A stretch of 64,000 bases of DNA from Candidatus Nomurabacteria bacterium (GCA_020632415.1 JACKFO010000002.1:578732-642731), one strand, 5' to 3'; positions 1 to 63,668 are shown, counted from the stretch's first letter. Program-made: numbers and translations. The notes: a model not told the origin generated them from the sequence alone.

Positions 1-65
1 AAAGTCGTCAAGGCGATGACAACCATAACCACCTGCAACCAGAAAAGCTTGATCTTCGGATTCAT
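1..65 (-). CDS. Partial CDS running off the window edge: N-terminus MNPKIKLFWLQVVMVVIALTT (hydrophobic, signal/TM-like)
   Basis: ATG at 65..63 on the minus strand preceded by a strong SD (AAGGAGAGG). The frame stays open to the window edge. Confidence 0.35.
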   Translation of the reverse strand, partial: MNPKIKLFWLQVVMVVIALTT

Positions 66-324
66 GATCCTCTCCTTCGGAAATTGTTCGAGAGATTGTC
101 ACAGTGTGCAAACTAACTAACATCTAGTTAATCTAGACACTGTAACTATCCCTATTTTAATGAACATAATTAACATAGAAATATATCATATATTATTAAT
201 TTTGTCAATAGCTTGGCAAAGACCCTCTAAAAATAAGGTCTTTCCTTTACAACAAACAAAAACACCACATCACCCAACGCCCCATATGCGGTTCATAAAA
301 AAATAAAATGAAAGCCGCCTCTGC

Positions 325-723
325 TCAATGAGCTTTGGCGGCTTTGTTGATCAGGGATGCCAATCCAATACCACGAGACCCTTCAGCCTCGTCGATATGT
401 CGGATGATGACCCAACCATGAACATGGGGAACTCGCTGTCCGGCGACGGAACCTTGATTGTAGCTAAGATTAAAGTGCGCTCCTTCCTGAACCTCAGGAA
501 TTAGACGAAGTAGTTCTGCCACAGAGTTTTGCCAATTAACCGGAAGATCGAGTATTGATTCAATGTGCTGTTTGGGAATGATGAGGTAGCGTCCTTGCAT
601 AGGAATTCCATCGCTGTTGATGGCTACTACTAAGTAAGCGTCCTCTGTTTCATTTAAGATTGTTACTTTTCCATTCTTGATACAGAATGGGCATCCCTGG
701 ACTGTCTTTTGTGGCTTTTGCAA
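325..723 (-). CDS. HIT-family (histidine triad) nucleotide hydrolase
   Basis: 132 aa with an N-terminal CPFC motif and a histidine triad (PHVHGWVII). GC is ~47%, higher than the host. A GC-rich hairpin overlaps the stop (311-344) and is followed by a T-run on the minus strand. Confidence 0.7.
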   Translation of the reverse strand: MQKPQKTVQGCPFCIKNGKVTILNETEDAYLVVAINSDGIPMQGRYLIIPKQHIESILDLPVNWQNSVAELLRLIPEVQEGAHFNLSYNQGSVAGQRVPHVHGWVIIRHIDEAEGSRGIGLASLINKAAKAH

Positions 724-956
724 AATCCTGCCCTCCTTAGCCCATGATACGACCCATTCGTATCAGATTAATCAATATAACATAATTATTAAAATTAATC
801 AATACCAGACATAAACACACAGAACCCAAACATCACCCAACAGCGGATGCGAGACTCTTGAGCTTTTCTCTATATTTAAGGTAGAATAATAAATAGTAAA
901 GCTCAATCGTCCAAATCCCTCACTCGTCACGGTGGCTATAAATTAAATATAAAATT

Positions 957-1385
957 ATGCTTACAAAAAAATTTGCTTCATTATTAATCCTAGAAAAAGA
1001 AGGACAAATATTGCTCCTAAGAAGAAAAAATACAGGAGAAGAAGATGGAAATTATACCGTGCCTTCAGGAAAAGTTGAAGAAGGAGAGACTTTTACGGAG
1101 GCAGCTATCAGAGAAACTTTTGAAGAGGTTAATGCAAAAGTTCTTGCCAATGATATAAGTTCGGTTCATATTATTCAACGCAAACAAGGTGACGAATGTA
1201 TAATTGCCAACTTCTTTTTATCCTATAATTGGAACGGGGAAATTAAGAACGCAGAACCTCATAAATGTGATGACGTGCAATGGTTTGATATAAAAAATCT
1301 GCCAGATAACATGGTGCCTTTTGTAAAACATGCTTTAGAACAAATCTACTTTACGAAAAAAACATATTCAGAACTTGGATGGTAA
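957..1385 (+). CDS. NUDIX hydrolase
   Basis: Nudix box GKVEEGETFTEAAIRETFEEV (GX5EX7REUXEEXGU). Confidence 0.75.
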   Translation: MLTKKFASLLILEKEGQILLLRRKNTGEEDGNYTVPSGKVEEGETFTEAAIRETFEEVNAKVLANDISSVHIIQRKQGDECIIANFFLSYNWNGEIKNAEPHKCDDVQWFDIKNLPDNMVPFVKHALEQIYFTKKTYSELGW

Positions 1386-1516
1386 AAAAACCACAAACTA
1401 AGGTCGCGCTTATAAATATGTCATTTTAATTACTATAAAAATAATCACTTCCAATTGCTGATTTATTATTGAAATGCTATAATTTTCTCATAATTAAACA
1501 AACAAACAGCGTCTAC

Positions 1517-2083
1517 ATGAAAATATTATTTTTCAACAAAGCTTTAAGGATATTACTCTCTACCAATGCCCTGGCCTTAATGGCCGGAGCAATGCTCGGA
1601 CCAATCTATGCTCTGTTCGTCGAAAAAGTTGGTGGCGATTTAATGGACGCTAGTATTGCCGGCGGAATTTTTGCTTTTGTCGCAGGATTAACAACCCTAA
1701 TCTCTGGAAAATACAGCGATCGAATCAAACAAAATGAGCTCATCGTAGTCTTAGGATATTCGATTATGGGGCTTGGTTTCTTTTTATATTTTTGGGTTGA
1801 TTCTATTATTTTTTTATTTATTGTCCAGGCAATAATCGGACTTGGTGAAGCAATTTATTCCCCGGCTTTTGATGCTGTCTATTCCAAACACCTTGATGGC
1901 CATAAATCCGGCACTCAATGGGGCGCTTGGGAATCAATGAATTATTTTACCACAGCCATCGGTGCTGTAGTTGGTGGAGCAATCGTTACTTTCCTTGGTT
2001 TTCAAACATTATTTATTATCATGAGTTTATTTTGTTTCTCGGCCGCTTTTTATATTTACCATTTAAAAAGAAATGTGTTATAA
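1517..2083 (+). CDS. MFS-transporter N-terminal half only (6 TM, ~190 aa), possibly a truncated or split gene
   Basis: MFS motif A-like GKYSDRIKQNELIVV between TM2 and TM3, with six predicted helices. It ends at 2083 and no C-terminal half follows in any frame. Start moved to the internal ATG at 1517 (MKILFF). Confidence 0.5.
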   Translation: MKILFFNKALRILLSTNALALMAGAMLGPIYALFVEKVGGDLMDASIAGGIFAFVAGLTTLISGKYSDRIKQNELIVVLGYSIMGLGFFLYFWVDSIIFLFIVQAIIGLGEAIYSPAFDAVYSKHLDGHKSGTQWGAWESMNYFTTAIGAVVGGAIVTFLGFQTLFIIMSLFCFSAAFYIYHLKRNVL

Positions 2084-2100
2084 ATAATAAAATATTTACT

Positions 2101-8644: not shown

Positions 8645-9442
8645 ATGACACAAAAAGAAAAAACAGCTTTAAAAAAATACGAGAAATACTTAAACAACAA
8701 AAAACTCCAAGCCTCTACCATCACTACTTATCTCTGGCACTTAGAAAAATTTTTTGCTTGGCTTAAGAATCAAAAATTAAGCACGGCTAAACTAAAAAAA
8801 TACCAAGAAGAACTACTAAAAAATCATTCTCATATAGCTAGCATCAATTTAAGATTGGTGATTCTTAATGATTTTTTAAAACTAGAAAAAAATTCCTGGC
8901 AATTTCCCCTCTTGAGCGCTGAAAAACAAAAAATTGAAATCCTAGATAAAAAACAATTAGATCAATTTTTAAATTCTCCAAAAAATCTGGAAAATATTTT
9001 AAATTTGCGAAATAAAGTTTTGTTGGAAATTTTATATTTTAGTGCTTTGAAAGTCAAAGAAATAGTACTTTTGAAAAAAGAAGATTTTGATCTAAAAAAT
9101 AATTTTTTATTATGGCAAAAGAAAAAAATAAAATTGCCCCAAGAGACAAAAAATTATTTACTCAAATATTTAAACAAAAGAATCGACGATTCTCCTTATT
9201 TATTTTTAAATTTTGACCGTGCCAAAAAAGATGAGCAACAACAACTCTCAATTCGTTCGGTTGAAAGAATTTTGGAAAAATACGCTCGTCAAATGCAGCC
9301 GATTTTGCGCATCACTCCACAAACTCTAAGGCACACCTTGGCTTATCATCTCAAACAAAATGGTGCGCAAGTCAAAGAAATCCAAAACGCCTTACATTTT
9401 CAAAGCTCAGTTGCTGCTCAAGAATATTTTAAAAAATTATAA
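8645..9442 (+). CDS. Tyrosine site-specific recombinase (Xer/phage-integrase family)
   Basis: C-terminal catalytic region LRHTLAYHLKQNGAQVKEIQNALHFQSSVAAQEY (R…HxxR…Y). AT-rich host-like codon usage. Lies immediately upstream of the GC-rich island. Confidence 0.7.
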   Translation: MTQKEKTALKKYEKYLNNKKLQASTITTYLWHLEKFFAWLKNQKLSTAKLKKYQEELLKNHSHIASINLRLVILNDFLKLEKNSWQFPLLSAEKQKIEILDKKQLDQFLNSPKNLENILNLRNKVLLEILYFSALKVKEIVLLKKEDFDLKNNFLLWQKKKIKLPQETKNYLLKYLNKRIDDSPYLFLNFDRAKKDEQQQLSIRSVERILEKYARQMQPILRITPQTLRHTLAYHLKQNGAQVKEIQNALHFQSSVAAQEYFKKL

Positions 9443-9738
9443 TGGCCAATAAATATCAAAATTTAAACCAAAGCCAAGCCGAATTAGATTTTCATGATTT
9501 TAGTGTCTTGACTAAAGAAGAGATTATTAAAATTACTGACGATTTTATCAATGACGCTCAAGAAAAAAGCTATCAGCGAATTAGCTTCATTGTTGGTCAA
9601 GGAAAACACTCTAAAAATGGCGCCGTGATCAAGCCATTATTGGAAAAATATCTTACTACTCATCCCGAAGTAAGTCGTGTCCAAAAAGGCAAATTTAATC
9701 AAGGAGGCGAAGGGGTTTTAGTGGTAGATTTAAGCTAA
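9442..9738 (+). CDS. Smr-domain protein
   Basis: ELDFHDFSVLTKEEII…RISFIVGQGKHSKNGAVIKP matches the Smr (MutS2 C-terminal-like) fold. Its start overlaps the recombinase stop. Confidence 0.6.
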   Translation: MANKYQNLNQSQAELDFHDFSVLTKEEIIKITDDFINDAQEKSYQRISFIVGQGKHSKNGAVIKPLLEKYLTTHPEVSRVQKGKFNQGGEGVLVVDLS

Positions 9739-9810: not shown

Positions 9811-9831
9811 AAATTTGTTAAAAAAATAAGA

Positions 9832-9860
9832 GGCCCGGTTCTCGCGTGAGAACCGGGCCT
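9832..9860 (-). terminator. GC-rich rho-independent terminator of the foreign two-gene operon
   Basis: On the minus strand: GGCCCGGTTCTC-ACGC-GAGAACCGGGCC followed by CTTATTTTTTT. Sits 27 nt after the stop of the 1162-aa gene. Confidence 0.7.
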
Positions 9861-9886
9861 GATTGTTGCATATCGATTCAACGAAT

Positions 9887-12800
9887 TCAGCGGATCGAAC
9901 TGCCGTCCGGACCGTCGAAGATGACCTCCACAGTCGCTCGGTAGAAGGTGTTGGGCAGCCCAGTAAGCGTGTTGTCCTGCCACTGAAAACCACCTGTACC
10001 GTCCCAAGGAACCGTAGCGATCAGCTCGTAAACGCCGTAGACCTCCGCACTACGGTAGATCTTGAGTTGACTACAAGCCGCATGCTGCTCGAAAGTCAGC
10101 ACCGGCCGACCAGCGACGAGACGCAGATCGAAATGCGGAGCAAGCAAGTTGCCCGCGTACAGATGCTTGACCTGGCCACTGTGTCCAGGCCCCAAGGGAT
10201 GCGGCCAACTCGACCAGTTGGTCGACAGCGAATTGCTGAAGTGCAAGACACCGTCTTCCCATTGACCGAAATGGGTTTGACCGTTGATCACCAAAGGCAG
10301 CGGGAAATGATCCGAAGTGCTCAGGTGCACCAGGGCTTCATCCGACCAGCGATCCAAGCTGGTACCGTGCCAAAATTCCAGACCTACGCCTCGCTTTTGC
10401 GCGACCAGATCCTCGATGCCATCGTTATCCAGATCGTTGGGCAACATGTAACGATGTGCCAACTCTGGATCAACGATCGTCTCCACCTGCGACATCCAGT
10501 CTTCCTGGGAAAAGTCACAGATGAAGATACGAGAACTGTCGGGCGAAGGATTGATGTGCGGAATCCACATGTTGAAAGCGACACGAGGAGCTTCCAGGGG
10601 TGAATCGCTGACCAACGGAACCATCGACTCCGGCCCATAGCCAGTGTAGTTCTGGTAGGACAGATAGTCGATGTTGTAGACCCACTGTTGCTCTGCTTCT
10701 GACCAGGAGGCCATCAACAGAGCACGATAGGCATAGGGATCACCATTGCCTGGGCCGACGTTGATGATCGCCATAAGATCATAGAAGCCGTTATTCAGGA
10801 AATCACCGGAAAGCAGCTGCAAGACTTCGATTGATCGATTGTCGAAGAGCTCCCGAGTCGCTCGGAAACCTTCGTGGCCATCGAGATCAAAAGTCAACAA
10901 CAACGGCTCATCCAGACTACCGCCTGACAAAGCGAAATGAGGCCCCAAAGCATCGGTCCCCATGTAAGCCATGTGTCGCACTGGCAAGACAGTTGTCGGC
11001 AAGCTGATACTGGTTCGACTGGGTAGAATCAAGCCACCATCGCGCCGACGCAACACCAAGTACTGACCGTCGACGTAGGCGATGACTTTGCCTGTGACTA
11101 ACAGCTCCGGATCTTCCAGTACCATCAGCTGATGAGCATTGTCTCCACTCACTGGCCAACCGGGAACCGCCTGAGGAGTCGAGATACCGTTCAGGGACCA
11201 GACCCGTATCTGATTGTCAGTAGCCACGATCAGCTCCGGAACTTCATCTCCGGAAAAGTTGAACAACAGCAGATCCCGAACCTCCGAGAAGGTCCAAGAG
11301 TTGACCAGGCTCGACTCGTAGTAGACTCGCACCTGGTTGTTGTCAGCGATCGCCAAATACCCGTGATTCGATGACCACTTGAAATCGCTGTTGCAAGCGA
11401 TCTCAAAATTGCTCATCGGCGTACCGATGAGCGGCGCCCTAGTCGCGAGAGTTTGCAGAGGTCCTGCGGGCTGGAGGCTCTGGACCGCAAAGTCCAAATG
11501 CCAACGCCGTCCCAAGAACGACTGCTCACTCGGAAGAGAAAGCTGTTGCCAAGGCACAAAGAAGGGAACTACTTCGTTCTGCTCCCAGTTGCCCGAAAGC
11601 TGCGAAGAGCAGTTGATCCATCCTTCTTGATCCTGACCGTTGAACTGGATTTGTTGCACGTCCACACCGGCGTTGTACATCGGCGCATACAAGCTGTTGT
11701 TGTAAGCGAGGGGCACCTCGGTCTGATACATGCCATCCTGCGGGAGCAAGATGACTTGATCAGTTTCGGTGTTGCTCAGATGCAAAACAGTCTGCAAGTT
11801 GCCGTCGACACTGAAGCTTAGATCCCAGGAAAACACCGTAGGCGTTGTGTCCCAAGAGTCTCTGCTCATGACAGAATTGCCAGCAGTCGGAAAAGGAGCG
11901 AGTCGATCATCATGTGGCCAGTAACCATCGCCGTCGAGTGAAACTCGCTCGGCATAGATCAGCTTTGCCACTGTCTCCAGGCCCTCCCACCAGGTATGCA
12001 AACCACCGTGGGAAGCAGTTACCAGGCCCATGCCGAAGGCTTCCTCGCTAGCGGGATACCAGCGCATCTGACTACCTGGGCCATTCGACCAAGTAGAGAC
12101 GTAAAGTTTCTCTTCTTGATTGACTGGGTTCTCCAAATAGTACACATGGTCGACGCTAAGCACAAAATCCCCTGCCTGAGTAATGGGGGTGGCATTCTGC
12201 AACCAGCCCGCCTTGTAACGATCGGCTGGATTCCAGAGAGCCGGCGAGTAGATGTGTCGTTCCGGCGAATCCATCGGCACCCGCCAATTGCTAGCAAAGC
12301 CACAATAGCCCAGGCCCATCGCGTCCCAACAACCAGAATCGCTGTCATCAACCCACATGTCGATGAAAGTTTCCTTGTAGCCCTGAAGCTGCAAGATGGC
12401 TCGCATGTACCAACCCGGACCGAGCTGATCGACTGGAGTGAAATCCATAAAGCTATTGGTTCCGCACCAGGCACTCACGAAGGCAAAGCCCCTTTGGGGG
12501 TAAGCCATGACCTCTTGCATGAAGTGAGTGCCTGAGAAAACGAAGAGCACAGGGTGAAGTGGATCCATATTCTGCAAATTGACCCCTCTCTGCTCCAGAT
12601 AAACAGGAAGTTGATTGACGTCAAATGCGAGGGTCGTTGCAACGTTCACCTTGAAAGGCTGACCAGTCTCCGGATCCAAGATCAGACCAGGATGATCACC
12701 GTACCAGGAGCAACGCTCGGTGTCCGGCACGATATGTGACACCACGACATCCTGATTGTTTTCCCAGAGTTGAGCCACGGAATGAGGAAACTCTCGACCA

Positions 12801-13375
12801 TAAGCCGACTGCGCCCCATCTGGCATTTGCGAAGCGAAGAAACTCTGATACCAGAGTTCCGGATTGATCGACTCTCCCGGACGATCAGGATGTGTGTAGA
12901 AGTCTCCGTCATCAAAGTAGAGTGAATCCTGATACTCAGCGCAGAGTATGATCGGAATCACCGTCAGCTGCCGATCTTGCACAATCGGCAGCTCAGCGCC
13001 GCTGTTGTTGTTGAAGCTCTGACGCTGGGCGTCATTGACTTCTCGTACCAGTTCTTCGGTCGCAGGCGGAGTGTTACTGGGAAACACAACTCCTGAAGGC
13101 ACGAAGCCATCGGGAGTCGGCACCAGGTACCGCAGTTCATCACCATCGACCACTGGCACAAAGCCGGTCGGTCCGGCTTGCCAGTGTCGAAAGTCAGTGG
13201 AGGTCTCGCCGACGGGCGTCAGTGGACGCCCGTCCGTATCGCACACCGTCACGCCCCAGGGATTGGTCTGACTCAGGATCTCCTGACCGTTCCAAATCCG
13301 AGTCCCCGGGACTGCCATTGCCAACTGTGCCATCAGGCACAAGAGCAACAGCGCGAAGAAATTCTTGCGTGTCAT
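9887..13375 (-). CDS. Large secreted protein (1162 aa) of foreign GC-rich origin. Carries FG-GAP-like repeats and a possible His/Cys caspase-like peptidase core (speculative).
   Basis: Signal peptide MTRKNFFALLLLCLMAQLAMA. GC ~55% with GC3-rich codons, against a ~32% host. FG-GAP-like segments (FSGDEVPELIVATDNQ; NDLDNDGIEDLV). A His…Cys pair (SGTHF…AWCGTNSF) is only weakly reminiscent of clan CD peptidases. SD AAGGAAG. Confidence 0.7.
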   Translation of the reverse strand: MTRKNFFALLLLCLMAQLAMAVPGTRIWNGQEILSQTNPWGVTVCDTDGRPLTPVGETSTDFRHWQAGPTGFVPVVDGDELRYLVPTPDGFVPSGVVFPSNTPPATEELVREVNDAQRQSFNNNSGAELPIVQDRQLTVIPIILCAEYQDSLYFDDGDFYTHPDRPGESINPELWYQSFFASQMPDGAQSAYGREFPHSVAQLWENNQDVVVSHIVPDTERCSWYGDHPGLILDPETGQPFKVNVATTLAFDVNQLPVYLEQRGVNLQNMDPLHPVLFVFSGTHFMQEVMAYPQRGFAFVSAWCGTNSFMDFTPVDQLGPGWYMRAILQLQGYKETFIDMWVDDSDSGCWDAMGLGYCGFASNWRVPMDSPERHIYSPALWNPADRYKAGWLQNATPITQAGDFVLSVDHVYYLENPVNQEEKLYVSTWSNGPGSQMRWYPASEEAFGMGLVTASHGGLHTWWEGLETVAKLIYAERVSLDGDGYWPHDDRLAPFPTAGNSVMSRDSWDTTPTVFSWDLSFSVDGNLQTVLHLSNTETDQVILLPQDGMYQTEVPLAYNNSLYAPMYNAGVDVQQIQFNGQDQEGWINCSSQLSGNWEQNEVVPFFVPWQQLSLPSEQSFLGRRWHLDFAVQSLQPAGPLQTLATRAPLIGTPMSNFEIACNSDFKWSSNHGYLAIADNNQVRVYYESSLVNSWTFSEVRDLLLFNFSGDEVPELIVATDNQIRVWSLNGISTPQAVPGWPVSGDNAHQLMVLEDPELLVTGKVIAYVDGQYLVLRRRDGGLILPSRTSISLPTTVLPVRHMAYMGTDALGPHFALSGGSLDEPLLLTFDLDGHEGFRATRELFDNRSIEVLQLLSGDFLNNGFYDLMAIINVGPGNGDPYAYRALLMASWSEAEQQWVYNIDYLSYQNYTGYGPESMVPLVSDSPLEAPRVAFNMWIPHINPSPDSSRIFICDFSQEDWMSQVETIVDPELAHRYMLPNDLDNDGIEDLVAQKRGVGLEFWHGTSLDRWSDEALVHLSTSDHFPLPLVINGQTHFGQWEDGVLHFSNSLSTNWSSWPHPLGPGHSGQVKHLYAGNLLAPHFDLRLVAGRPVLTFEQHAACSQLKIYRSAEVYGVYELIATVPWDGTGGFQWQDNTLTGLPNTFYRATVEVIFDGPDGSSIR

Positions 13376-13396
13376 GTCGTCTTCCTTTCAATTCGG

Positions 13397-14995
13397 TTAC
13401 TTAAGCAGAGTCAACTTTTGTGCAAGGAAGCAGTTCTTGGATCGCAGTGCTACTATGTACACACCACTAGCTTCCTCAGCAAAATCAAACACCTGTCGAT
13501 GCTCGCCTGCTGAGAAAAATTGCGGTGATTGTGATTTCACTTGCCGTCCCAACAAGTCGTACACGCTGAATGTCAGCCACTGTGCCTCAGGCACCATGAA
13601 GCTGATATTGGTCTGCACGTTGAACGGATTGGGATAGCAATCCAAACTGAACTCTTGCGGCCTAGCGATCGGCTGCTCAACGGATACTTGATCCAAGAGC
13701 AAACCCCAAGCAGTAGTGACCCACTGATTGTTGAGATAATCACAAGTTGCTCCGCAATAAGTTCCAGAATTTGTAACAATCGCCTTAGTCTGAGAATAGG
13801 GTCTAGCTGCGTCATTGGCTGCCATGTAGCCCGGCAGAGAGAACTGATGACTCTCCACGAATGAAAAGCCGTCGAATTCAAACCACAGAGCTTTTTGAGT
13901 AGCCAAGCTCGACTGATACCACAGTAAGTGGTTGTCGAGCAGGTCAACAGCCATGACCAAATCGTCGATCACCAAAGAATCCAAGATCTGACCAGTTTCA
14001 GTCAGAGCAAAAAGCAAACCATGACTAGGCGTAGCACCGGAAGTAGTAGCGACCAACAAGACATCGTCCTGCCAAACCGGTACACCATACCAATGAACAC
14101 CATGATACAAAGTATCTGCAACTACTTGCTGACCATCATAGAGATCGGTCACTGTCAGCTGCAGATAATCATTCCAGTATGGATCCGAGCCCACGATACC
14201 GACGGAGTAAAGATTCCCTCCTCTAATGCTCAAACGCGAGCGGGCTTGAGGAAAATCATTTGCCGTCGTCCAGACAAACTCTCCATCGGCTGACAAGAAA
14301 GCTGTATGCTCCGAGTTCTGCAGAACAAAACCATCGGCATAAGCAATCATTGCCAGCTCTGAACTGTAGCTGTCCCCAAGATAAGTCACGGGATCATCCC
14401 GCAACAAAATGCCTGTGTTTAGATCAAGCACCTGTACGTAGTAGCTCGGTGCTTGCTGTCCACTGTGACCATCAGAAATTCCTTTGACGATCAGAAGTCG
14501 ATCGCCGTTGATCAGGGGCTGGAAACCAGCGCCCAAAGAAATTTCCAGACTGTCCAAAGGACCATCGCTCAGCGACCAATCCTCCACGAACTGCCCAGTC
14601 TGATAGTCAGGATGCAAACGATGATAGTGCATGGTGGTCGTGTTTACCTCAGTAAGAGTAAACTCGGTCTCCACCAGAACAAAACCATTGTTCTGATCAG
14701 TTACTACTTCGCCACCCGTTGCCGGATGATTGAGCAGCAACTGATCGCTGATCAGAATCGTACCTTGCGGACTGTGCACGCTGGCGTAAGCGTCACCGTA
14801 GTAAGGCGGCGCATATCCGGCATACCACAAATCCAAAATATTGTTGTCAGCCAAATTCTCAGCAAACAACGACGTTGCCGTCGGTGTCTGCGGATTGACT
14901 CGCTCCACCCAAAAGTAAGTGGAGTCGATGCCGTCTTCTTGAGCATAAACCGTGTTGCAGAACAACACGATCAAGCCCCAAAGCAGAGTCTTCAT
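13397..14995 (-). CDS. Secreted protein with a type IX secretion system (Por) C-terminal sorting domain; foreign GC-rich origin
   Basis: Signal peptide MKTLLWGLIVLFCNTVYA. The C-terminal ~80 aa (CYPNPFNVQTNISF…LTFSVYDLLGRQVK…ASGVYIVALRS…KLTLLK) match the T9SS CTD consensus. SD AAGAGGTGTGAG. GC ~53%. Confidence 0.75.
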   Translation of the reverse strand: MKTLLWGLIVLFCNTVYAQEDGIDSTYFWVERVNPQTPTATSLFAENLADNNILDLWYAGYAPPYYGDAYASVHSPQGTILISDQLLLNHPATGGEVVTDQNNGFVLVETEFTLTEVNTTTMHYHRLHPDYQTGQFVEDWSLSDGPLDSLEISLGAGFQPLINGDRLLIVKGISDGHSGQQAPSYYVQVLDLNTGILLRDDPVTYLGDSYSSELAMIAYADGFVLQNSEHTAFLSADGEFVWTTANDFPQARSRLSIRGGNLYSVGIVGSDPYWNDYLQLTVTDLYDGQQVVADTLYHGVHWYGVPVWQDDVLLVATTSGATPSHGLLFALTETGQILDSLVIDDLVMAVDLLDNHLLWYQSSLATQKALWFEFDGFSFVESHQFSLPGYMAANDAARPYSQTKAIVTNSGTYCGATCDYLNNQWVTTAWGLLLDQVSVEQPIARPQEFSLDCYPNPFNVQTNISFMVPEAQWLTFSVYDLLGRQVKSQSPQFFSAGEHRQVFDFAEEASGVYIVALRSKNCFLAQKLTLLK

Positions 14996-15178
14996 CTCAC
15001 ACCTCTTATTTTCATTGTTTTTCGTTGAAATCGATATGTAAACCAATTGGTTGATTAACCAAATGGTTATTTTGTAAAAGGACAGATCTAACTAGATACC
15101 ATAGTAAAAATAGCACATTTTGTCAATAAACAAAAAACGCCCTTCTCAAATCCGAGAAAGACGTCTCAAAAATCAATG

Positions 15179-16831: not shown

Positions 16832-16918
16832 ATTGATAAGTATAACAAAATTTAAACAAAGAAAAAAGCTCACTTCCCAAGGGCAAAAGTGAGCTCAAAC
16901 ACTTGTCTGTGCTCAGGC

Positions 16919-17152
16919 CTATTCTGTCTTGTTGCTCTGAGATCGATGAAGGCGCTCCTCCTCTTCGGTCATCAAGAACTTGTGAGTAGTAGGCTGACAG
17001 TCACACGCAAGATACAGGTTCATTGCGCCCTGAGAAGCCTCCAAATTCCCATAGCAATGTGGACATTGCATACCAACTCGACGAACGTGCCCTGGCAAAG
17101 GAATCGGAAAAGCTTTGGACATCAAACTCCTCTCCCCGATTTTTTCTACCAC
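16919..17152 (-). CDS. Small zinc-ribbon-like protein (CPHC…CDC), GC-rich orphan
   Basis: 77 aa carrying MQCPHCYGNLE…LACDCQ. Local GC ~50%. A GC-rich terminator hairpin (AGCTCACTT…AAGTGAGCT plus T6) sits at 16869-16897 on the minus strand. Which strand is coding is uncertain. Confidence 0.35.
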   Translation of the reverse strand: MVEKIGERSLMSKAFPIPLPGHVRRVGMQCPHCYGNLEASQGAMNLYLACDCQPTTHKFLMTEEEERLHRSQSNKTE

Positions 17153-17228
17153 AAGGAACTTTCTTTATTTCAATCTATCTTAGGTAAGCTATATTGTCAA
17201 AAAAAATAATTTTCTATTACTATTAATT

Positions 17229-18443: not shown

Positions 18444-18473
18444 AACACATCTACAACAAAAAAATAAAGATGT

Positions 18474-18788
18474 CTACTGATCGATTCTAATCGCCTTTCC
18501 TTCCACTAAAGCTTGAGAGATTTTCTGATAAGCCCCACTTAAGACCCTTTGAAAAGTGCTTTGTGAGGTATTCATTTTTTGCGCACAAACTACTTGATCA
18601 TAATTTTCGATATTCTTTAAACGCAAAGCTTCCACCTCTTCTAAAGACAAAAAAATCTCTTCTAAATCTCTCAAGGGAATGCCTTGTGGTTTAAAATAAC
18701 GAACCAAAGGCTTAAATCGAACACGCCTCATTAAACGCGGTCGACCTAAGCCCCAATTACCATTTTGATTTCCTCTATTTGGCATCAT
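18474..18788 (-). CDS. DUF134 (UPF0251) predicted DNA-binding protein
   Basis: YFKPQGIPLRDLEEIFLSLEEVEALRLKNIENYDQ…MNTSQSTFQRVL is the DUF134 signature. Confidence 0.7.
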   Translation of the reverse strand: MMPNRGNQNGNWGLGRPRLMRRVRFKPLVRYFKPQGIPLRDLEEIFLSLEEVEALRLKNIENYDQVVCAQKMNTSQSTFQRVLSGAYQKISQALVEGKAIRIDQ

Positions 18789-47921: not shown

Positions 47922-47940
47922 TAATTTAACTGGGAAATTA

Positions 47941-50547
47941 TTATTCTCCTGCTCGATGACGTTTAATAAAAAAAATCAGTCCTGAACTCACAAGAACCGC
48001 CAAGAAGGCTCCTAGGATATAATAAAATAAATTACCATTGCCCTGATCAGTTTTTGGCAAAAGCTGTTTTAAATAATTATTAGAATCCGTCTTCATAGAC
48101 TCCTTAACTAATAAAGAGCGTGGATTTGACTGTTTCAAAATTTTACCATCTTGATCATTGACGGCCAAATAGATTTCATGCTCCCCTTCAGCTAAAGCTG
48201 AATTCAAAGAATAGGACCAAGCTCCAGACTGATCGCTCTTGGTGCTCAAAACCAAAGGTAAATCACTATAAATATAAATAGTTAGCCAAACATCAGGGTC
48301 AACTGTTCCGGATAACTCTAGACTTTGATCATCTTTAAACTCTGTTTTTATTTGCCAAGCACTTTCAATTGCTGCTCTTTTAATTTTTGCTTGTTCCAAA
48401 GAAGCCCCGGCTAAAACGAGTTCCGCGAAATTGCTAAATTTCTCTTCTAATTGACCACTGCCATTAGGATTGTAAGAATTTTTTATTTCTACCAAATCTG
48501 AATAACCATCAGCGTCAGAATCCTGATTTAATGGATCAGTAGCAAAATATTTTTCCAAGTCATCAGGCAAACCGTCCTGATCAGAATCAAGCATCAGCAC
48601 TGCTGCTGGCACATCCTCCAAAACGCTCTCTTTACTTAAAACCGTAGCTTTCTGAGAATTAAAAACCAAAACTGACTGTTCTTTAGCTAAAACTGGATCT
48701 AAAGATAAATTTTTAGCACCAAATAAAGCCTCATTTAATTCCCCTATCTTTGTTGTTTTTCCTAAAAATGGGACTAAATCTTGATTTAATTTTTCTTGTT
48801 CTAGTTTTCTAACCACCAAACGATTCAAGTATTCTTCGGCCAAAATTTTCTGACATGAATTTGTATCACCAGAAGCACAAGTAACATCTGAAGCATAAGT
48901 TTCTAAAAGATAATTATGGCAAGCTTGCCGATCAAAGAGTTGCTGTTCTTGGCATTTCAAATCAACGACCGTCCGATTTAAATAATCTTCACAGGAATTA
49001 ACCTCATCTATTCCTTCATCTAAACAAATTTGGTCAAGATCAGCTCCTCCTAAATTTTCTTCTTTTTTAATTTGCTCAAGGCCCTCTTCTTGTTTCTGAC
49101 ATTTACCGACAACGCAAGAGCAGCTTCCTCTCGGAATTGCCGCACAGTCAACTACTGGTAGTTCACTTTGAGCATAGCAACCGCTACACAAATTTACACA
49201 ATCAGCATCTACTTGGCAGAGAGCAGGCTTTTCTTCCTGATCGTCTTTTTCGTCAACTACAGCAGCTTGACTTTGCTCTGATTCATTGTCCTGATCATCT
49301 TCGCTTTCAATAGCTGGTGAGGCCAGAGACAAATTTTCTTCAGACTGTAAAGCTAAATTTAAAACAAAATCTTCTTCATAAACTACTCCGCTAGAATCAG
49401 TAGCAATCGCCGCCAAAATATAAACCCCATCAATAAAATCTTGATCCAAAACAACGCTCTTGTTCCAATGAAGGCCATCAAATTTACTAATCGAATATTC
49501 ATCACCGATCGAAGCATCATCTTCTTTAACTAACAAAAAACCAAAATCATTAGCAATAAAATTACTTCTAAACTCAAAACTTAATTCCGGATGACTTACA
49601 AAACTATTATCCTGAGGACTAAGTAAGCTGATCTGATAATTTTCTGGGTTGCTTTCTAAATTTAAAATTTCCTCTTCACTCAAATGTTGATTTTCGTCTA
49701 TCTTGTTTTCTGTAATTTCAAAAATTAGCGGTTGATTTAAATAATTTAAATTTTGATTTAACCAAACAACCAGATAGTATTCTCCAAGTGGATAGTTTTT
49801 TATCTCGCCAAAATTAGCGCCATACAAAACTGGATCATTATTAATCATTGTTAACTCAAAATTTGTAAACAAATCTCCCTCAATGTTATACAAACTTGCT
49901 CCCAAAATTTCATCTGCATTTAAAGCTCGATTTAAGCTTAATTCTATGGGAAAATTATCTTGATTAATATTTTCTTGAACGCTTGGAGAGCTTAAGTTGA
50001 TTAATAATTCTGTTGCTAAGTCAGCAAGCTTATTCGAATCGTCTGACTCCTCTGTTTTTGTTTCTTCTGAGATATTTTGATCAGTCGTAGCATCTTTTGA
50101 CTCAGCGGCAATAACGATTTCACCAGATAAGCTTATCTTCACTTCTGGCGAAACTTTAAATATTACTAAATTTCCTGCTGAGTCATAGCTACTGGCTTGG
50201 GCTGACAAAAAATAATCGCCAGCCAGAAAAGAGCTGGTATCCCAAAAGCTATCAGCAGACCAAAAACCATCCTCGTCTAAAAAAGCTTGCCATTGCAACT
50301 CAAAAGATTTATTCTGATCTTTGACTACAAAATTAAAAGTATCAAAATCTTCTACGTCAAAATTTCTTCCCTGCAATTTTACTAATTCTCCGACTTGAAA
50401 ATGATCAGCGCTTAAAACAAATTGAAAATTCAACTGTTGAGTATTGTCATAAGCAGCCCGAGTAGTCACAAAAACAATACCTTGAGTAAAAACTAGTAAA
50501 AAAATAAATATTTTAAATAAAAAGTGATTGATTTTTTCCGTAATCAT
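47941..50547 (-). CDS. Large surface protein (868 aa) with an N-terminal signal, thrombospondin-type-3-like DxDxDG calcium-binding motifs, a Cys-rich segment and a C-terminal TM anchor
   Basis: DSDQDGLPDD…DSDADGYSD; CQVDADCVNLCSGC…; C-terminal LFYYILGAFLAVLVSSGLIFFIKRHR. Confidence 0.7.
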   Translation of the reverse strand: MITEKINHFLFKIFIFLLVFTQGIVFVTTRAAYDNTQQLNFQFVLSADHFQVGELVKLQGRNFDVEDFDTFNFVVKDQNKSFELQWQAFLDEDGFWSADSFWDTSSFLAGDYFLSAQASSYDSAGNLVIFKVSPEVKISLSGEIVIAAESKDATTDQNISEETKTEESDDSNKLADLATELLINLSSPSVQENINQDNFPIELSLNRALNADEILGASLYNIEGDLFTNFELTMINNDPVLYGANFGEIKNYPLGEYYLVVWLNQNLNYLNQPLIFEITENKIDENQHLSEEEILNLESNPENYQISLLSPQDNSFVSHPELSFEFRSNFIANDFGFLLVKEDDASIGDEYSISKFDGLHWNKSVVLDQDFIDGVYILAAIATDSSGVVYEEDFVLNLALQSEENLSLASPAIESEDDQDNESEQSQAAVVDEKDDQEEKPALCQVDADCVNLCSGCYAQSELPVVDCAAIPRGSCSCVVGKCQKQEEGLEQIKKEENLGGADLDQICLDEGIDEVNSCEDYLNRTVVDLKCQEQQLFDRQACHNYLLETYASDVTCASGDTNSCQKILAEEYLNRLVVRKLEQEKLNQDLVPFLGKTTKIGELNEALFGAKNLSLDPVLAKEQSVLVFNSQKATVLSKESVLEDVPAAVLMLDSDQDGLPDDLEKYFATDPLNQDSDADGYSDLVEIKNSYNPNGSGQLEEKFSNFAELVLAGASLEQAKIKRAAIESAWQIKTEFKDDQSLELSGTVDPDVWLTIYIYSDLPLVLSTKSDQSGAWSYSLNSALAEGEHEIYLAVNDQDGKILKQSNPRSLLVKESMKTDSNNYLKQLLPKTDQGNGNLFYYILGAFLAVLVSSGLIFFIKRHRAGE

Positions 50548-56623: not shown

Positions 56624-56644
56624 GCAAGCAAGGAGACCTATAAG

Positions 56645-57073
56645 ATGTCTGACAAAGGCCCGATCAATATCCGCTTCGTTCTGGGAAGCCAAGCTTCCGA
56701 TGAGGCCAGAGATTTTGCCCAAGCAATCAAAGCCAAGCTAGAGAAAGAAACTGCCTTCACTTATCGATTCGTCGATGCAGAAGCAAGCGCAGAAATCTTC
56801 ATTATCCTTGGACTTGATCAAGAACACTACGAATGGCTCAGAGCAATGATTGAAAATCTAGAGTTCGGCAGTTACGCCATTTTCTATCATCCAGACTTTG
56901 CCCCTGCTGAGCTCTTTGACCTTTCTGCCCTAGAAGCTGATCACAAAGGAAGAAATCTAATTCATGCTTTCTATAGCGCTAAGTGGCTGCGGCAAGTTTT
57001 GCCTGGCGTTTGTCGCTATCTCGAAAGATACGAAGCCAATGATTTGCCAGAAGCAGAATCCCCACCGGTTTAA
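56645..57073 (+). CDS. GC-rich orphan hypothetical protein (142 aa)
   Basis: GC ~48% against the host ~32%. Strong SD AAGGAGACC. Its own GC-rich terminator (AATCCCCACCGG…CCGCTGGGGATT plus T-run) overlaps the stop. Confidence 0.55.
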   Translation: MSDKGPINIRFVLGSQASDEARDFAQAIKAKLEKETAFTYRFVDAEASAEIFIILGLDQEHYEWLRAMIENLEFGSYAIFYHPDFAPAELFDLSALEADHKGRNLIHAFYSAKWLRQVLPGVCRYLERYEANDLPEAESPPV

Positions 57074-57651
57074 ACACCGCTGGGGATTCTTTTAATTTAA
57101 CTAGCTTATTAAATTATCTCCTCTGATTAAGAGGATTTTCTACTTCTTGAGTATTGCGATCATCTTGTTTTTGCTCGAGTCGTGGATATTTTTCACTATC
57201 CAGATCACCGACAAATAAAACTGGATCAACCAAGTCTTTGGCTGAGGTTTTTGGTGGACCATTTTTTACAAATGGTTTTTTGAATCTTTTTTTGTTGTTA
57301 GTCTTATTTTTCTTAAAATTAAAAGCCATATTTTTCTTAAAATTATACCTGCAATATAGCAAAGAAAGCAGCCAAAGGCAATCAGAGCCGTCAATGTTAG
57401 ACTTTTTTTAACAATCGCTTTATAATAAAGACCCTTCAGCTTAAACAAAATACTCACAAAAATACCCGATTTAAGCTGAAAAAAATAAAATTTGGTCTGA
57501 TGCTATATTGTGTGCTATAATACTTTTGAGCACTAGATATAGTGTCTGCACTAACAAACTAAAGCTAAACAATTTTTATTTTGGCTTATTTTTTTCCAAA
57601 AAAATCATTAAAAAAATTAATTTAAATAAAATCATTAAACAAAAAAACAAT

Positions 57652-60654: not shown

Positions 60655-61524
60655 ATGGAAAACCAGATAAAATATAAAAATAAAATATCATTAAACCAAG
60701 CTAAAAAAAAGATAATAGCACACGCTTTTTCTGTAAACTATCCAATATTTGATAAAAATTATAATAGTATAAAATTAAAAAATGTTGAGGATGTTTCTAA
60801 TTATCTAAAACAAAATAACTATGATTTAGAGTCTCTGGCTGAAAAATGCCGCGATTATACAGAAAGAGTGCCTCTATTCGAAAATTTACTTTCTACAACA
60901 TGGCAAGTAATAAGTAGTTTTAAAAACGCAGATGATGCTACTAACAAAAACGGGTCTATTTCTTTAGTTAATGAGTCCACTGGAAAAACAGAGCTTGAAA
61001 TTAAAAGTAATGGAGAATTTGCCTTCTCTCCTTATCAATCAAAATTTGAAAAAGCAGTGAAATATTTAAATATGGCTGTAAATAATGCCTCTTTTGAAGA
61101 TTTTCTAACTGCAATCACGTCTGGTATTTCTAGCATAGAAACCTACCTTAATTACCGTGCAGGTTTATACAACAATTTACACTCAAATGAAAAATTAATA
61201 GATAACCAACTTATCAAAGTACGCTTTGAAGATAAAATAGATTGGTGGATACCAAAAATGACAAACAAAAAAATAGACAAGAGCGCCGACTCTTGGAGAC
61301 ACTTTAAAGAACTAAAAAATAAAAGAGATAAATTGGATCAACATAATCATAATATCCCTATAGGAGGAACCTACGTGGACTTGTGTCAACTAATTAATAA
61401 ATTTCGATCCGGCATAGCTCAATTTATTAACGATCTACATGTTATTTTTAATGAAAAAACACCAACGTGCGTAATTAATGCCATCTATATGCCTGATGTG
61501 GAAATTATAAATAATAATAAATAA
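60655..61524 (+). CDS. Hypothetical protein (290 aa)
   Basis: ORF beginning MENQIKYK. The ORF-track extension from 60613 reads through the nrdJ terminator and is rejected. No recognisable motifs. Confidence 0.5.
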   Translation: MENQIKYKNKISLNQAKKKIIAHAFSVNYPIFDKNYNSIKLKNVEDVSNYLKQNNYDLESLAEKCRDYTERVPLFENLLSTTWQVISSFKNADDATNKNGSISLVNESTGKTELEIKSNGEFAFSPYQSKFEKAVKYLNMAVNNASFEDFLTAITSGISSIETYLNYRAGLYNNLHSNEKLIDNQLIKVRFEDKIDWWIPKMTNKKIDKSADSWRHFKELKNKRDKLDQHNHNIPIGGTYVDLCQLINKFRSGIAQFINDLHVIFNEKTPTCVINAIYMPDVEIINNNK

Positions 61525-61578
61525 GTATAATAAAAAACAATTCCTTAGATAAAATAACTTTATGAAAACAATTTTATT

Positions 61579-62190
61579 ATGAAATATTATTTTTCCTCAT
61601 TTAAAATCGGCGATGAGCCGAAGAAACTAAAATCTTTACTCCCTGATAATCCTCAGGCTGTTTATATATCAAATGGTTTAGACTTTGCTAGTCCAGAGGG
61701 CAAAAAGAAGCATCAAGATTGGGACCTAAGAGAGCTAAAAGAAATCGGCATTGTTGCCGAGCCTTTAGATTTACGAGAATATTTTGGCAAACAAAATGAA
61801 CTAAGGAATAAATTAGAAGACGTAGATCTTATCTATGTAAGTGGCGGTAATGTCTATGACCTTCGGATAGCCATACACCTTAGTGGTTTTGATCAAATTT
61901 TGTGCAATGACCTTGTTAAGACTGACAAAGTCTACGCTGGCTACAGCGCAGCTGTCTGTGTCTTATCGCCAACGTTAAAAGGCTATCACATAGTAGACAA
62001 GCCTGATAACAAGCTCTATGGAGACCATGAGACTCTCTGGGACGGCCTTGGTCTTATTGACTGGCAATTTGCACCTCATTTTAATTCAGATCATTCAGAA
62101 TCAGAAGATATCAATCAAGAAATCGCATACTACGAAGAACATAACATGAAATACCGAAGCCTAAAAGATGGAGATGTAATTATAGAATAA
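61579..62190 (+). CDS. Peptidase S51 / type-1 glutamine-amidotransferase-like (dipeptidase-E-like) protein
   Basis: LIYVSGGNVYDL … VYAGYSAAVCV resembles the S51 nucleophile elbow. Confidence 0.45.
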   Translation: MKYYFSSFKIGDEPKKLKSLLPDNPQAVYISNGLDFASPEGKKKHQDWDLRELKEIGIVAEPLDLREYFGKQNELRNKLEDVDLIYVSGGNVYDLRIAIHLSGFDQILCNDLVKTDKVYAGYSAAVCVLSPTLKGYHIVDKPDNKLYGDHETLWDGLGLIDWQFAPHFNSDHSESEDINQEIAYYEEHNMKYRSLKDGDVIIE

Positions 62191-62225
62191 GGACTAAAAA
62201 GACTTAGTAGCTTTGAAAAATTTTA

Positions 62226-62459
62226 TTGATAATAATTTATAACATGCCTCAAATAACTCCCGGAAAATATCTGCACTACAAAGGCCAAGAATATAAAGTT
62301 TTAGGTGTCGCTAAGCACAGCGAAACTTTAGAAGACCTAGTTGTCTACCAAGCATTGTATGGCGAAAAAGGACTTTGGGTCAGGCCTTTGAAAATGTTTT
62401 TGGAAAATGTAGAAGTTGATGACAAACTTATGCCGAGGTTTAAATTTATCGGAAAATAA
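62226..62459 (+). CDS. DUF1653 family protein
   Basis: GKYLHYKGQEYKVLGVAKHSETLEDLVVYQALYGEKGLWVRP is the DUF1653 signature. Confidence 0.6.
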   Translation: MIIIYNMPQITPGKYLHYKGQEYKVLGVAKHSETLEDLVVYQALYGEKGLWVRPLKMFLENVEVDDKLMPRFKFIGK

Positions 62460-62523
62460 AAAATCGCCTCAATCTTCTTCAGATATATTGGCGAATGAAA
62501 CTTGAGAGCTCGTCGAGAGCTTT

Positions 62524-62805
62524 CTAGGCTTCGACCGGCATCAGAGGCAGATCCAGATCCTTGAACTTCATCCAAGCGCAAAAGCCGTTAGGCCAAGAAA
62601 CCTTGACGCAGACCGTGCTCTTTTCCGGACTGACCAACTCAGCGACCTGACCTGGTTCCTTGGGCGGATAGCGCAAGCGACCATTGGAACGAACCTCCTG
62701 ATGCAACTTCACAAGGCGTGCGCCATCGCTCAAGGCAATGATCTTCTCGTCTTCTCCAAGAGTGACATCGTAGCCACTCACTCGCCTAACCTGCTGCTGA
62801 GACAT
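62524..62805 (-). CDS. GC-rich orphan small protein (93 aa), third gene of a three-gene foreign cassette
   Basis: GC ~55%. A T-run-flanked hairpin lies at 62898-62930, between this gene and the one upstream. Confidence 0.45.
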   Translation of the reverse strand: MSQQQVRRVSGYDVTLGEDEKIIALSDGARLVKLHQEVRSNGRLRYPPKEPGQVAELVSPEKSTVCVKVSWPNGFCAWMKFKDLDLPLMPVEA

Positions 62806-62950
62806 CTGCTGCTCCCAAAAATGAAAATGGACTGTTTAGACCAAGAAGTATACTGCATTTATTACTTTTTGTCAATAGTAAATAAAAAATCGCTCTAAGC
62901 ACTTCACCTTTTTTGCAAAAAAAGTGAAACACCTAGAGCGACCAGATCGC

Positions 62951-63205
62951 TTACTTTTGACTGATTCCGAAATGCCAAAGTAGCACCCAAATAGTGTCTT
63001 CAGAGCCACTGACCAAAAGCTGATCGCAACGACTCAGAGCTTGCTCAACCCTCCCAGAAACAAACCTCAAATCACGGGCTTCGTATTCATCAGCCGTCTG
63101 CTCTGTTCTGAGTCTATAATCGTCCAAAGTAGCTCGCACCAAAGCAATTCCGTGTTCCACGTTCATAGCTTTGGCGTTGATCTGAGGATAACGATTGTCT
63201 GGCAT
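62951..63205 (-). CDS. GC-rich orphan small protein (84 aa), second gene of the cassette
   Basis: GC ~52%. Starts 26 nt after the stop of the upstream gene. Confidence 0.45.
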   Translation of the reverse strand: MPDNRYPQINAKAMNVEHGIALVRATLDDYRLRTEQTADEYEARDLRFVSGRVEQALSRCDQLLVSGSEDTIWVLLWHFGISQK

Positions 63206-63231
63206 CTGAACTCCCTCCTGCTGACCGCTGT

Positions 63232-63540
63232 TTATTTATGACCATTGCCGTTTGGCAACTCGATCCACAAATCTTTCCTAGCCAACAGACGTCTCGCTCC
63301 CTCCAAATTACCACACTCCAAATGTGGCACGCACTCTTGAAATGTAGCAAGACACTGTTTAAGCGACTCTAGGTTCGGCTTCTCCCCTTTTCTGATTTTT
63401 TCTTCCTGACCCCTCAAATCTTCCAACATTTGTTGAGTCAAAACCGCAAAAGCCCGATCAATACTCTCTATTGGTTTAATCCTAGGAGATTTTCTGATGT
63501 GTTCTCTGGTGATAATTGGACGACCGATCTGCTCTGCCAT
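63232..63540 (-). CDS. GC-rich orphan small protein (102 aa), first gene of the cassette
   Basis: GC ~50%. Contains …CVPHLEC…. Diverges from the AT-rich gene at 63669. Confidence 0.45.
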   Translation of the reverse strand: MAEQIGRPIITREHIRKSPRIKPIESIDRAFAVLTQQMLEDLRGQEEKIRKGEKPNLESLKQCLATFQECVPHLECGNLEGARRLLARKDLWIELPNGNGHK

Positions 63541-63668
63541 TGTTCTGCCCTTTCTTATTCCTTAAAGATCAATGATTAACAACATCTTAAAACTCAAAAA
63601 AATATTTGTCAACGTAGCCAAAAACAATAAATTGTGCGAAAATTAAGAAAAGAATTAAAATAAATTTT

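Follow-up and report, generated by a model that had tools for sequence, protein, structure and literature searches.

GC-rich, Shine-Dalgarno-led transcription units in an AT-rich Candidatus Nomurabacteria genome: probable old horizontal acquisitions with incomplete amelioration

How does an AT-rich genome come to carry single genes whose base composition, ribosome-binding signals and terminators differ from those of their immediate neighbours? The question is raised by a 64,000-nucleotide stretch (GCA_020632415.1 JACKFO010000002.1:578732-642731; hereafter the window) of a metagenome-assembled genome (MAG) of ‘Candidatus Nomurabacteria’, a member of the Parcubacteria within the candidate phyla radiation (CPR), also known as Patescibacteria. 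A first-pass annotation of the window had flagged ten genes in seven units: a HIT-family gene, a two-gene block (the big island), a zinc-ribbon gene, a gene for a divergent phosphoribosyl pyrophosphate (PRPP) synthetase, a MutS-like ATPase fusion, an orphan gene and a three-gene cassette (Table 1). All of them are encoded on one 842,326-bp contig (NCBI proteins MCB9802947-MCB9803013), and the gene content around them is cellular and typical of the CPR, with PNPase, S15, a P-type ATPase, CorA, ribonucleotide reductase (RNR), an RNase J-like beta-CASP protein and large beta-helix surface proteins. The seven GC-rich units sum to 10.2 kb, or 16% of the window. We consider it probable that the units were acquired by horizontal transfer long ago and have been only incompletely ameliorated since.

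Codon composition separates nearly all of the flagged genes from their surroundings. The backbone, defined by 58 curated genes, has a GC content at third codon positions (GC3) of 0.300 ± 0.050, and nine of the ten flagged genes lie 2.3–6.8 standard deviations above it; nine of ten are likewise outliers in a synonymous-codon likelihood test (z = 3.4–7.3). The per-gene check of GC3 and codon usage that had been proposed for these genes places nine of them outside the backbone distribution, and the earlier description of single genes of ~45–55% GC within a ~32% backbone does not hold for the PRPP synthetase gene, a marginal member with a GC content of 0.424 and a GC3 within the backbone range. 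The relative synonymous codon usage (RSCU) of this gene correlates with that of the backbone (r = 0.79), its extra GC is located in codon positions 1 and 2, and by codon usage it is outside the set. Since GC falls back to the backbone level within ~50–150 nt of each unit, the GC-rich segments coincide closely with transcription units. Their codon usage gives no evidence of a common donor; it runs from a type resembling the Fibrobacterota-Chlorobiota-Bacteroidota (FCB) group to nearly backbone-like. The gene for the 1162-aa island protein correlates at r = 0.52 with the high-GC genomes that carry its homologues and at r = -0.17 with the backbone, and the small flagged genes are intermediate (r = 0.54 with the backbone). 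G-ending codons of lysine, glutamate and glutamine reach 0.58–0.67 in the island and 0.69–0.75 in the high-GC homologues, against 0.22 in the backbone, and the synonymous composition of the island is between the high-GC source type and the CPR backbone.

The flagged genes also differ in their expression signals. When Shine-Dalgarno (SD) motifs are scored at the start codons that NCBI or Logan had called independently, they are found 5' of all ten flagged genes and of 4 of the 58 backbone genes (Fisher p = 3e-9), with rates of 38% and 3%, respectively, in a shuffled-upstream control. The observation that GC-rich genes carry SD sequences which are scarce in host genes is therefore borne out; in the 25 nt ahead of the start the backbone genes show 17% GC, and they have an SD at roughly chance frequency. 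Every unit has a promoter-like site of the form TTGACA-17-TAnnnT set in AT-rich DNA, and a hairpin followed by a T-run stands at each of the five positions where the first-pass annotation had placed one, with a further hairpin 3' of the island. The flagged hairpins (dG -15 to -26.5, 33–69% G-C pairs) are stronger than most backbone terminators (dG -9 to -13.6, 17–45% G-C pairs). Two details of the earlier description need correction: the hairpin of the MutS-like gene is imperfect rather than perfect, and host terminators are AT-rich in most cases only, the hairpins of CorA (-18.1) and RNR (-16.8, 88% G-C pairs) being strong exceptions.

Table 1. Positions, signals and GC3 of the GC-rich units and genes in the window (CDS, coding sequence; T9SS, type IX secretion system)
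Feature	Position	Strand	Elements	GC3
HIT-family unit	311-760	-	hairpin 311-345 + T-run; CDS 325-723; SD AAGGAGG ~732-738	0.42
Big island, one operon	9831-15126	-	promoter-like TTGACA-17-TATGGT 15098-15126; terminator 9831-9860	
Island gene 1	13397-14995	-	SD; 532-aa secreted protein, T9SS type-A C-terminal sorting domain	0.53
Island gene 2	9887-13375	-	SD; 1162-aa secreted beta-propeller protein	0.63
Zinc-ribbon unit	16866-17200	-	terminator 16866-16896; CDS 16919-17122; SD GGAGAGGAG; promoter-like 17172-17200	0.50
Divergent PRPP synthetase unit	19024-20181	-	terminator 19024-19049; CDS 19058-20095; SD AAGGAG; promoter-like 20153-20181	0.364
MutS-like ATPase fusion unit	32294-34477	-	terminator 32294-32335; CDS 32361-34358; SD GGAGGA	0.51
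MutS-like promoter	34449-34477	-	TTGACA-17-TATAGT	
Orphan 142-aa unit	56625-57098	+	SD AAGGAG; CDS 56645-57073; terminator 57056-57098	0.41
Three-gene cassette	62480-63570	-	SD on each gene	
Cassette gene c102	63232-63540	-	SD	0.44
Cassette gene c84	62951-63205	-	SD	0.45
Cassette gene c93	62524-62805	-	SD	0.64

The association of high GC3 with SD motifs extends to related Parcubacteria loci, where an any-start scan with an internal-position control finds the motif at 28 of 52 GC3-high open reading frames (ORFs) and 51 of 513 others (p = 4e-13), compared with 3 of 27 and 21 of 384 at internal positions. Such GC3-high outliers make up ~9% of the ORFs in 32 related loci and are mostly ORFans without Pfam domains. 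The SD motifs may be functional in this organism. For about half of the Parcubacteria, published work detected no anti-SD motif in the 16S gene (PMC9297842), and no 16S rRNA 3' end in which to look for one was present in the relatives' loci examined. Some backbone starts (e.g., 8645, 16831, and 29380) have -10-like boxes 6–8 nt before the start codon, which suggests that backbone genes may use leaderless or A/U-rich-leader initiation.

The source of the GC-rich genes is clearest for the big island. Its 532-aa product has a Sec signal peptide and matches the T9SS sorting-domain families PF18962 (Por_Secre_tail; E = 1.6e-8, 35.2 bits, cut-off 27) and TIGR04183 (33.2 bits, cut-off 23), and its 1162-aa product is modelled (pLDDT 71) with tandem beta-propellers in the C-terminal half, the model yielding generic tandem beta-propeller matches only and no specific function. 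Among 5.8 billion protein clusters the 1162-aa protein has only two close homologues (61 and 67% identity), and a profile of the three CPR proteins recovered only 14 proteins from 1.84 billion representatives. The next full-length homologues, of 39, 37, 30, and 26% identity, are encoded in genomes of 62–64% GC, where they have a native GC3 of 0.76–0.83 (as at locus L035) and one of them has PolA and SecDF as its neighbors. At two of the loci (L039 and L040) the homologue adjoins a full-length homologue of the 532-aa protein, and a TonB-dependent receptor and an ECF sigma factor are found nearby in L040. The high-GC source-type genomes also encode TonB receptors and T9SS-tail proteins, and the named partial matches of the profile belong to Cloacimonadota and Calditrichota. 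The alignment of the 1162-aa protein gave no match in JGI metagenomes, and those of the island and the MutS-like gene gave none in viral contigs. The higher-GC donor that had been proposed is supported for the island by a two-gene unit native to 62–64% GC genomes, and the foreign, higher-GC origin of the island is demonstrated. The island is thus a module of two genes for secreted proteins that entered the CPR lineage in a single acquisition, its donor being a high-GC bacterium with features of an outer membrane, most likely a member of the FCB group.

This acquisition is not recent. One of the two close homologues is encoded in the Patescibacteria MAG GCA_018062885.1 (locus L003), which is collinear with the window in the order ATPase, cytochrome b5, zinc ribbon, VIT1, CorA, T9SS-tail gene, 1162-aa gene, Smr, recombinase, S15 and PNPase, and in which the island again stands out (GC3 0.53–0.60 vs. 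0.23–0.38 in its backbone); a further relative, L004, likewise has GC-rich orthologues of the island in synteny. Protein identity between the window and L003 is 61–72% for the island, inside the backbone range of 42–94%, and the residual agreement in GC/AT state at synonymous sites is alike (kappa 0.19–0.27 for the island, 0.09–0.29 for the backbone). A zinc-ribbon homologue with 48% identity and the SD AAGGAGG occupies the same site in L003, and the island terminator and SD are kept across the window, L003 and L004, the hairpin with compensatory changes. Because the island is shared with L003 at backbone-like divergence, it predates the separation of these lineages and has since changed in step with the backbone. 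The claim of gene-precise insertions specific to this genome accordingly fails for the island and the zinc ribbon, and an empty syntenic site in L003 is seen only for a four-gene block that includes the PRPP synthetase gene.

Two further features of the island region can be mentioned here. The relatives possess an extra GC-rich gene for a 241-aa Por_Secre_tail protein 3' of the 1162-aa gene (L003 13743-14468; L004 4008-4145), with its own promoter and hairpin, which the window lacks. At 8645-9738, a tyrosine recombinase with a Phage_integrase domain and an Smr-domain gene adjoin the island and occupy the same place in L003; both have backbone composition (GC3 of 0.26 for the recombinase at 8645-9442), and they are more likely an Xer-type housekeeping pair than the island's own integrase.

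The MutS-like gene shows the same compositional features in a different distribution. It adjoins a tRNA-Arg/Lys/His cluster (31941-32210), and its product has a weak match to MutS domain V/MutS2. A word-indexed search of the 5.8 billion protein clusters returned one homologue, 63% identical and from the Parcubacteria MAG GW2011_GWA2_36_10 (L034/L041), and a scan of metagenomes brought in one more, 45% identical, on a JGI contig (L043), which raises the number of lineages to three. In both the gene has a GC3 of ~0.55 against backbones of 0.27–0.39, a strong SD and a GC-rich hairpin, and the genomic context is different in each lineage. The best-match check that had been suggested for each gene accordingly gave a mixed outcome, with high-GC native homologues for the island module and only Parcubacteria-type contigs for the MutS-like gene, for which no donor is therefore identified. 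No direct repeats flank the gene, by which integration at the tRNA was ruled out.

We thus favor the following history. The GC-rich genes would be xenologues gained by horizontal transfer from higher-GC, SD-using bacteria and kept as self-contained transcription units, each with a sigma-70-type promoter, an SD, an ORF and a strong intrinsic terminator, in an AT-rich and essentially SD-less Parcubacteria genome. The transfers would be old and separate events that took place before the split from the nearest sequenced relatives, followed by vertical inheritance or by movement within the clade. The island donor is read as FCB-type, and the present GC3 of 0.4–0.64, between a donor type of ~0.8 and the backbone value of 0.30, would represent incomplete amelioration. 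That related genomes share GC-rich genes with their odd features intact indicates that the genes are old. We infer the direction and timing of the transfers, and a foreign origin is plausible for the HIT, zinc-ribbon, orphan, cassette and MutS-like genes. Horizontal gene transfer (HGT) into Patescibacteria, including from Bacteroidota, is reported to be common and mostly not recent (PMC12455944).

Several results weigh against this history. Valid database-wide homologue searches covered the island and MutS-like queries, and a donor-type lineage was identified for the island only, the MutS-like homologues being confined to a Parcubacteria MAG or similarly AT-rich contigs. Mobility signatures are absent from the units, in that no flanking repeats and no PHROG, PADLOC or viral-contig links were found; nor was an integrase of foreign composition, the adjacent tyrosine recombinase being of backbone composition. 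Simple neutral amelioration also fits the synonymous sites poorly. In a two-state non-stationary likelihood model, a free fit to the 1162-aa gene is significantly better than relaxation to the backbone value of 0.30, whether on a star tree (p = 7e-8) or with the best rooting (p = 2e-4), and such relaxation would also require a root GC3 as high as the donor level; the free fit puts the equilibrium at ~0.78 for this gene and at 0.21–0.29 for the RNR control. For the MutS-like gene, synonymous sites are saturated while GC3 remains 0.51–0.55 in three lineages, so that amelioration would need a root GC3 of 0.93–1.0, and the saturation makes the three-taxon fit itself uninformative.

These results open the possibility, less than probable in our judgement and either a rival or an addition to our reading, that the genes form a maintained class: whatever their origin, a gene-specific force would keep them GC-rich, SD-led and hairpin-terminated. 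Candidates for such a force are selection on mRNA stability or translation, and GC-biased gene conversion in frequently recombining accessory genes. This explanation agrees with ours on origin and differs on persistence, since it sees a stable two-regime expression architecture where we see a fading scar of transfer. If the genes were relics relaxing to the backbone equilibrium, GC-to-AT synonymous changes should dominate, and an amelioration simulation matched to the observed divergence of the 1162-aa gene predicts a ratio of ~3:1; the polarised changes in this gene are balanced, at 119 GC-to-AT and 123 AT-to-GC. An equilibrium of 0.30 is rejected by the maximum-likelihood fits in the case of the island, and it is not rejected in that of RNR from the same genomes. 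Island synonymous turnover equals that of the backbone, yet four-fold compositions are nearly identical in the three lineages, and in the MutS-like gene the GC3 of ~0.55 and the SD persist at 45% protein identity. The conservation of SD motifs and of terminator hairpins, the latter with compensatory changes, and the clade-wide association of high GC3 with SD point the same way.

The synonymous-site tests, taken together, give a hint of a gene-specific force maintaining GC. On the other side, they involve three taxa per gene and a two-state homogeneous-site model, in which rate variation or differences between lineages could mimic stationarity. The T9SS-tail gene fits amelioration from a root GC3 of ~0.70, and some orthologues in relatives are already close to the backbone in GC3 (zinc ribbon 0.32, orphan 0.31–0.34, c84 family 0.31–0.57). 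Ordinary translational selection is no explanation, since genes that are presumably highly expressed, the ribosomal ones among them, are AT-rich, and no mechanism has been demonstrated. We would therefore put forward only tentatively that a discrete minority of genes (~16% of the window and ~9% of related-locus ORFs) is actively kept GC-rich, SD-led and strongly terminated, in a state that outlasts the memory of synonymous sites while native genes remain AT-rich and SD-less. Such a two-regime architecture would be especially puzzling if this lineage were among the roughly half of Parcubacteria that are reported to have no 16S anti-SD motif (PMC9297842). An extreme version, with modules tuned for expression or secretion in a T9SS-bearing, SD-using partner cell, is very improbable.

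It is also conceivable, though unlikely, that the genes are native and owe their higher GC to amino-acid composition or expression level, with no transfer at all. The PRPP synthetase gene, with its excess GC in codon positions 1 and 2, its GC3 of 0.364 and its backbone-like RSCU, is what such an explanation would lead one to expect, and the intermediate codon usage of the small genes, together with the backbone-like GC3 of some of their orthologues in relatives, can be read in its favor. However, GC3 and synonymous codons are strong outliers in nine of the ten genes, the third positions of S15, PNPase, GreA, and RNR are rich in AT, the SD dichotomy is left unexplained, and the island has high-GC relatives.

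Slightly more doubtful still is the explanation that the first-pass annotation had preferred, namely recent, repeated and gene-precise insertions from a higher-GC donor pool such as the organism's physical host. It accounts well for the sharp GC boundaries, for a MutS-like gene that stands in different contexts in three lineages, here beside a tRNA cluster, for the lack of the PRPP synthetase block in L003, and for the hotspot after the RNR gene, whose GC-rich content varies among relatives. For the island and the zinc ribbon it is largely refuted by their identical positions in L003 and their backbone-like divergence. The closest non-CPR homologue of the island is 39% identical, whereas the CPR copies are 61–67% identical to one another, and no close GC-rich homologue of the MutS-like protein was found in the 5.8 billion protein clusters. 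For the orphan and the cassette, homologues at the same hotspots in relatives (for the cassette, the c84 family) speak against recent insertion. Neither direct repeats nor mobility genes of foreign composition were found, and there is no evidence about a host: nothing links the donors to it. A phage or defence origin is also unsupported, as the scans gave only weak generic HIT and ATPase matches in PADLOC and only generic HIT and PRPP synthetase matches in PHROGs.

The mosaic itself is genuine and does not stem from faulty assembly. Positions 1-32080, a stretch that takes in both island junctions and the HIT, zinc-ribbon and PRPP synthetase genes, agree with a short-read contig from Logan (SRR12358675) at 100% identity, and positions 32062-34586 have exact matches in three Logan contigs from three runs. 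These end only inside tRNA-Lys and at an 85-nt repeat. Both junctions of the orphan are spanned by one independent Logan contig that runs from the beta-CASP gene through the orphan to the next gene, and 61185-63741 is 99.96% identical to an ENA scaffold from a different study. Since short-read assemblies of other runs and another study reproduce every junction of the flagged units, misassembly is excluded, as the first-pass annotation had rightly held. The only RNA genes found by Rfam in the window are tRNA-Arg, tRNA-Lys, and tRNA-His, all at 31941-32210, and RNA gene scans gave no rRNA match; rRNA as the cause of the GC of the island was ruled out on this basis, and the 5-kb island is protein-coding. 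A chimera produced in assembly or binning, or structured RNAs of high GC mistaken for ORFs, can be dismissed as extremely improbable: nothing speaks for them beyond the compositional contrast and Logan contigs that break 220–300 bp from the MutS-like gene, but these breaks coincide with tRNA-Lys and the repeat, the independent assemblies are 100% identical across junctions, the same junctions occur in a different MAG (L003), Rfam gives only tRNAs in the window (three) and in eight relatives, and conservation in the GC-rich genes follows the order codon position 2 > 1 > 3, a pattern of coding sequence. For c93 and c102, which have no homologues, coding status is judged from codon-position GC only.

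The smaller units deserve a short description. The HIT gene (GC 0.459; Pfam HIT, E = 4.5e-7) is followed by a hairpin with dG of -19.7 and 69% G-C pairs, and the zinc-ribbon gene (GC 0.49) encodes a 67-aa protein with CxxC...CxC. The PRPP synthetase (TIGR01251, 129 bits) belongs to a four-gene block at 17229-20095 (404-aa protein, DUF134, 58-aa protein, PRPP synthetase) that is absent from collinear L003 (5793-6201); it alone in the block has an SD and a GC hairpin, and its three neighbors are AT-rich. The orphan (GC 0.459) is located between the genes for the beta-CASP RNase and RNR, and its homologues in two more distant relatives (L020 and L006) have the same position, 32–38% identity and a near-backbone GC3. 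The cassette, in which c93 has its own promoter and hairpin, belongs to a hotspot with the conserved order 77-aa DUF1653 gene, cassette, 93-aa gene and 183-aa CobA-like gene; c84 represents a fast-evolving family found at the same hotspot in L005, L031, L006, and L026, with GC3 of 0.31–0.57.

Several side observations were made in these regions. Beside the cassette, a 93-aa plus-strand ORF (63669-63950) has a GC3 of 0.46, no SD and an AT-rich leader; it shares the hotspot of the cassette and precedes the conserved 183-aa CobA-like gene, which is seen in L048. The minus strand of 57114-57411, just upstream of the RNR gene, encodes a small basic protein of ~71 aa (called 57143-57358). With tblastn it is found in the corresponding place ahead of RNR in 25 of 29 RNR loci of relatives, so that it is a conserved small gene that travels with RNR. 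Near the MutS-like gene an 85-nt direct-repeat family (34615-34699, 35706-35790, and 37499-37583), consisting of the hairpin AAACTACTCCCTAAAAGAGTAGTTT and a T-run and then a shared leader into ATG, stands 5' of the genes at 34675-35721, 35766-36956, and 37560-37958, and short-read contigs break at its first copy. Three successive surface-type proteins of 868–1081 aa with beta-helix, DUF4215 and Big_13 domains (41670-50547) have a GC3 of 0.25–0.28 and belong to the ordinary backbone, so that being a large secreted protein is not by itself tied to high GC here. In the GC-rich genes of the window and of L003, L004, L034, and L043, third-position A is strongly depleted (0.10–0.20 vs. 0.30 in the backbone) and third-position T is closer to the backbone (0.25–0.34 vs. 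0.41). The shift is asymmetric: purine-ending codons of lysine, glutamate and glutamine are mostly donor-like, and pyrimidine-ending codons have moved further toward the backbone.

With old horizontal acquisition as the favored reading, the island offers a concrete and well-verified case in which genes passed from bacteria with an outer membrane, probably of FCB type, to a CPR lineage; what was passed on is a module of two secreted proteins, with a T9SS sorting domain still in place. The units also illustrate that GC3, SD, and the style of the terminator can keep xenologues recognisable through speciation events. The SD contrast makes two questions testable, whether Parcubacteria ribosomes pair with SD sequences and whether amelioration in tiny genomes is neutral. 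If the GC/SD state were selected, base composition could not be relied on to date HGT in CPR genomes, and an SD leader would be the mark of a gene set under separate regulation, possibly related to host interaction.

How do these units compare with known systems? As in the T9SS type-A cargo of Bacteroidota and other FCB bacteria, the 532-aa protein combines a Sec signal with Por_Secre_tail and TIGR04183 matches above curated cut-offs, and its gene is paired with the same partner as in the high-GC homologues; unlike such cargo it is encoded in a CPR genome, in a 64-kb window in which no T9SS component is encoded. CPR cells are generally regarded as having no outer membrane, and with no T9SS component in the window the domain is probably no longer a secretion signal. 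Integron cassettes are similarly gene-sized modules that each end in an inverted repeat, but the units described here are dispersed over 63 kb rather than arrayed by an intI, they have promoter-like sites of their own, and their inverted repeats are followed by T-runs in the manner of intrinsic terminators (no attC-model search was made); moreover the sole nearby tyrosine recombinase is conserved, of backbone composition and paired with Smr. The backbone, with its AT-rich upstream regions and chance-level SD frequency, resembles the SD-poor initiation of Bacteroidota and of Parcubacteria without an anti-SD (PMC9297842), from which the window differs in that a minority gene class of the same genome has conserved strong SD motifs.

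The HGT reported for Patescibacteria, which includes transfers from Bacteroidota and Omnitrophota (PMC12455944), is alike in its recipient and in the mostly non-recent age of the transfers, and a Bacteroidota- or FCB-related donor is plausible for the island. In the passages of that report that were consulted the transfers were inferred with MetaCHIP and island predictors, and neither a per-gene contrast in SD and terminators nor T9SS-tail cargo in a CPR genome appears there. The closest parallel is the incomplete amelioration described by Lawrence and Ochman, with which our units share atypical GC3 and codon usage, sharp boundaries, intermediate composition and a patchy distribution among relatives. 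In contrast to such islands, each of them is one transcription unit that has no integrase, repeat or other mobility gene of foreign composition, and lineages share them despite largely turned-over synonymous sites, so that simple decay fits poorly. The contrast in SD, GC, and terminators seen in the window is an unusually clean one.

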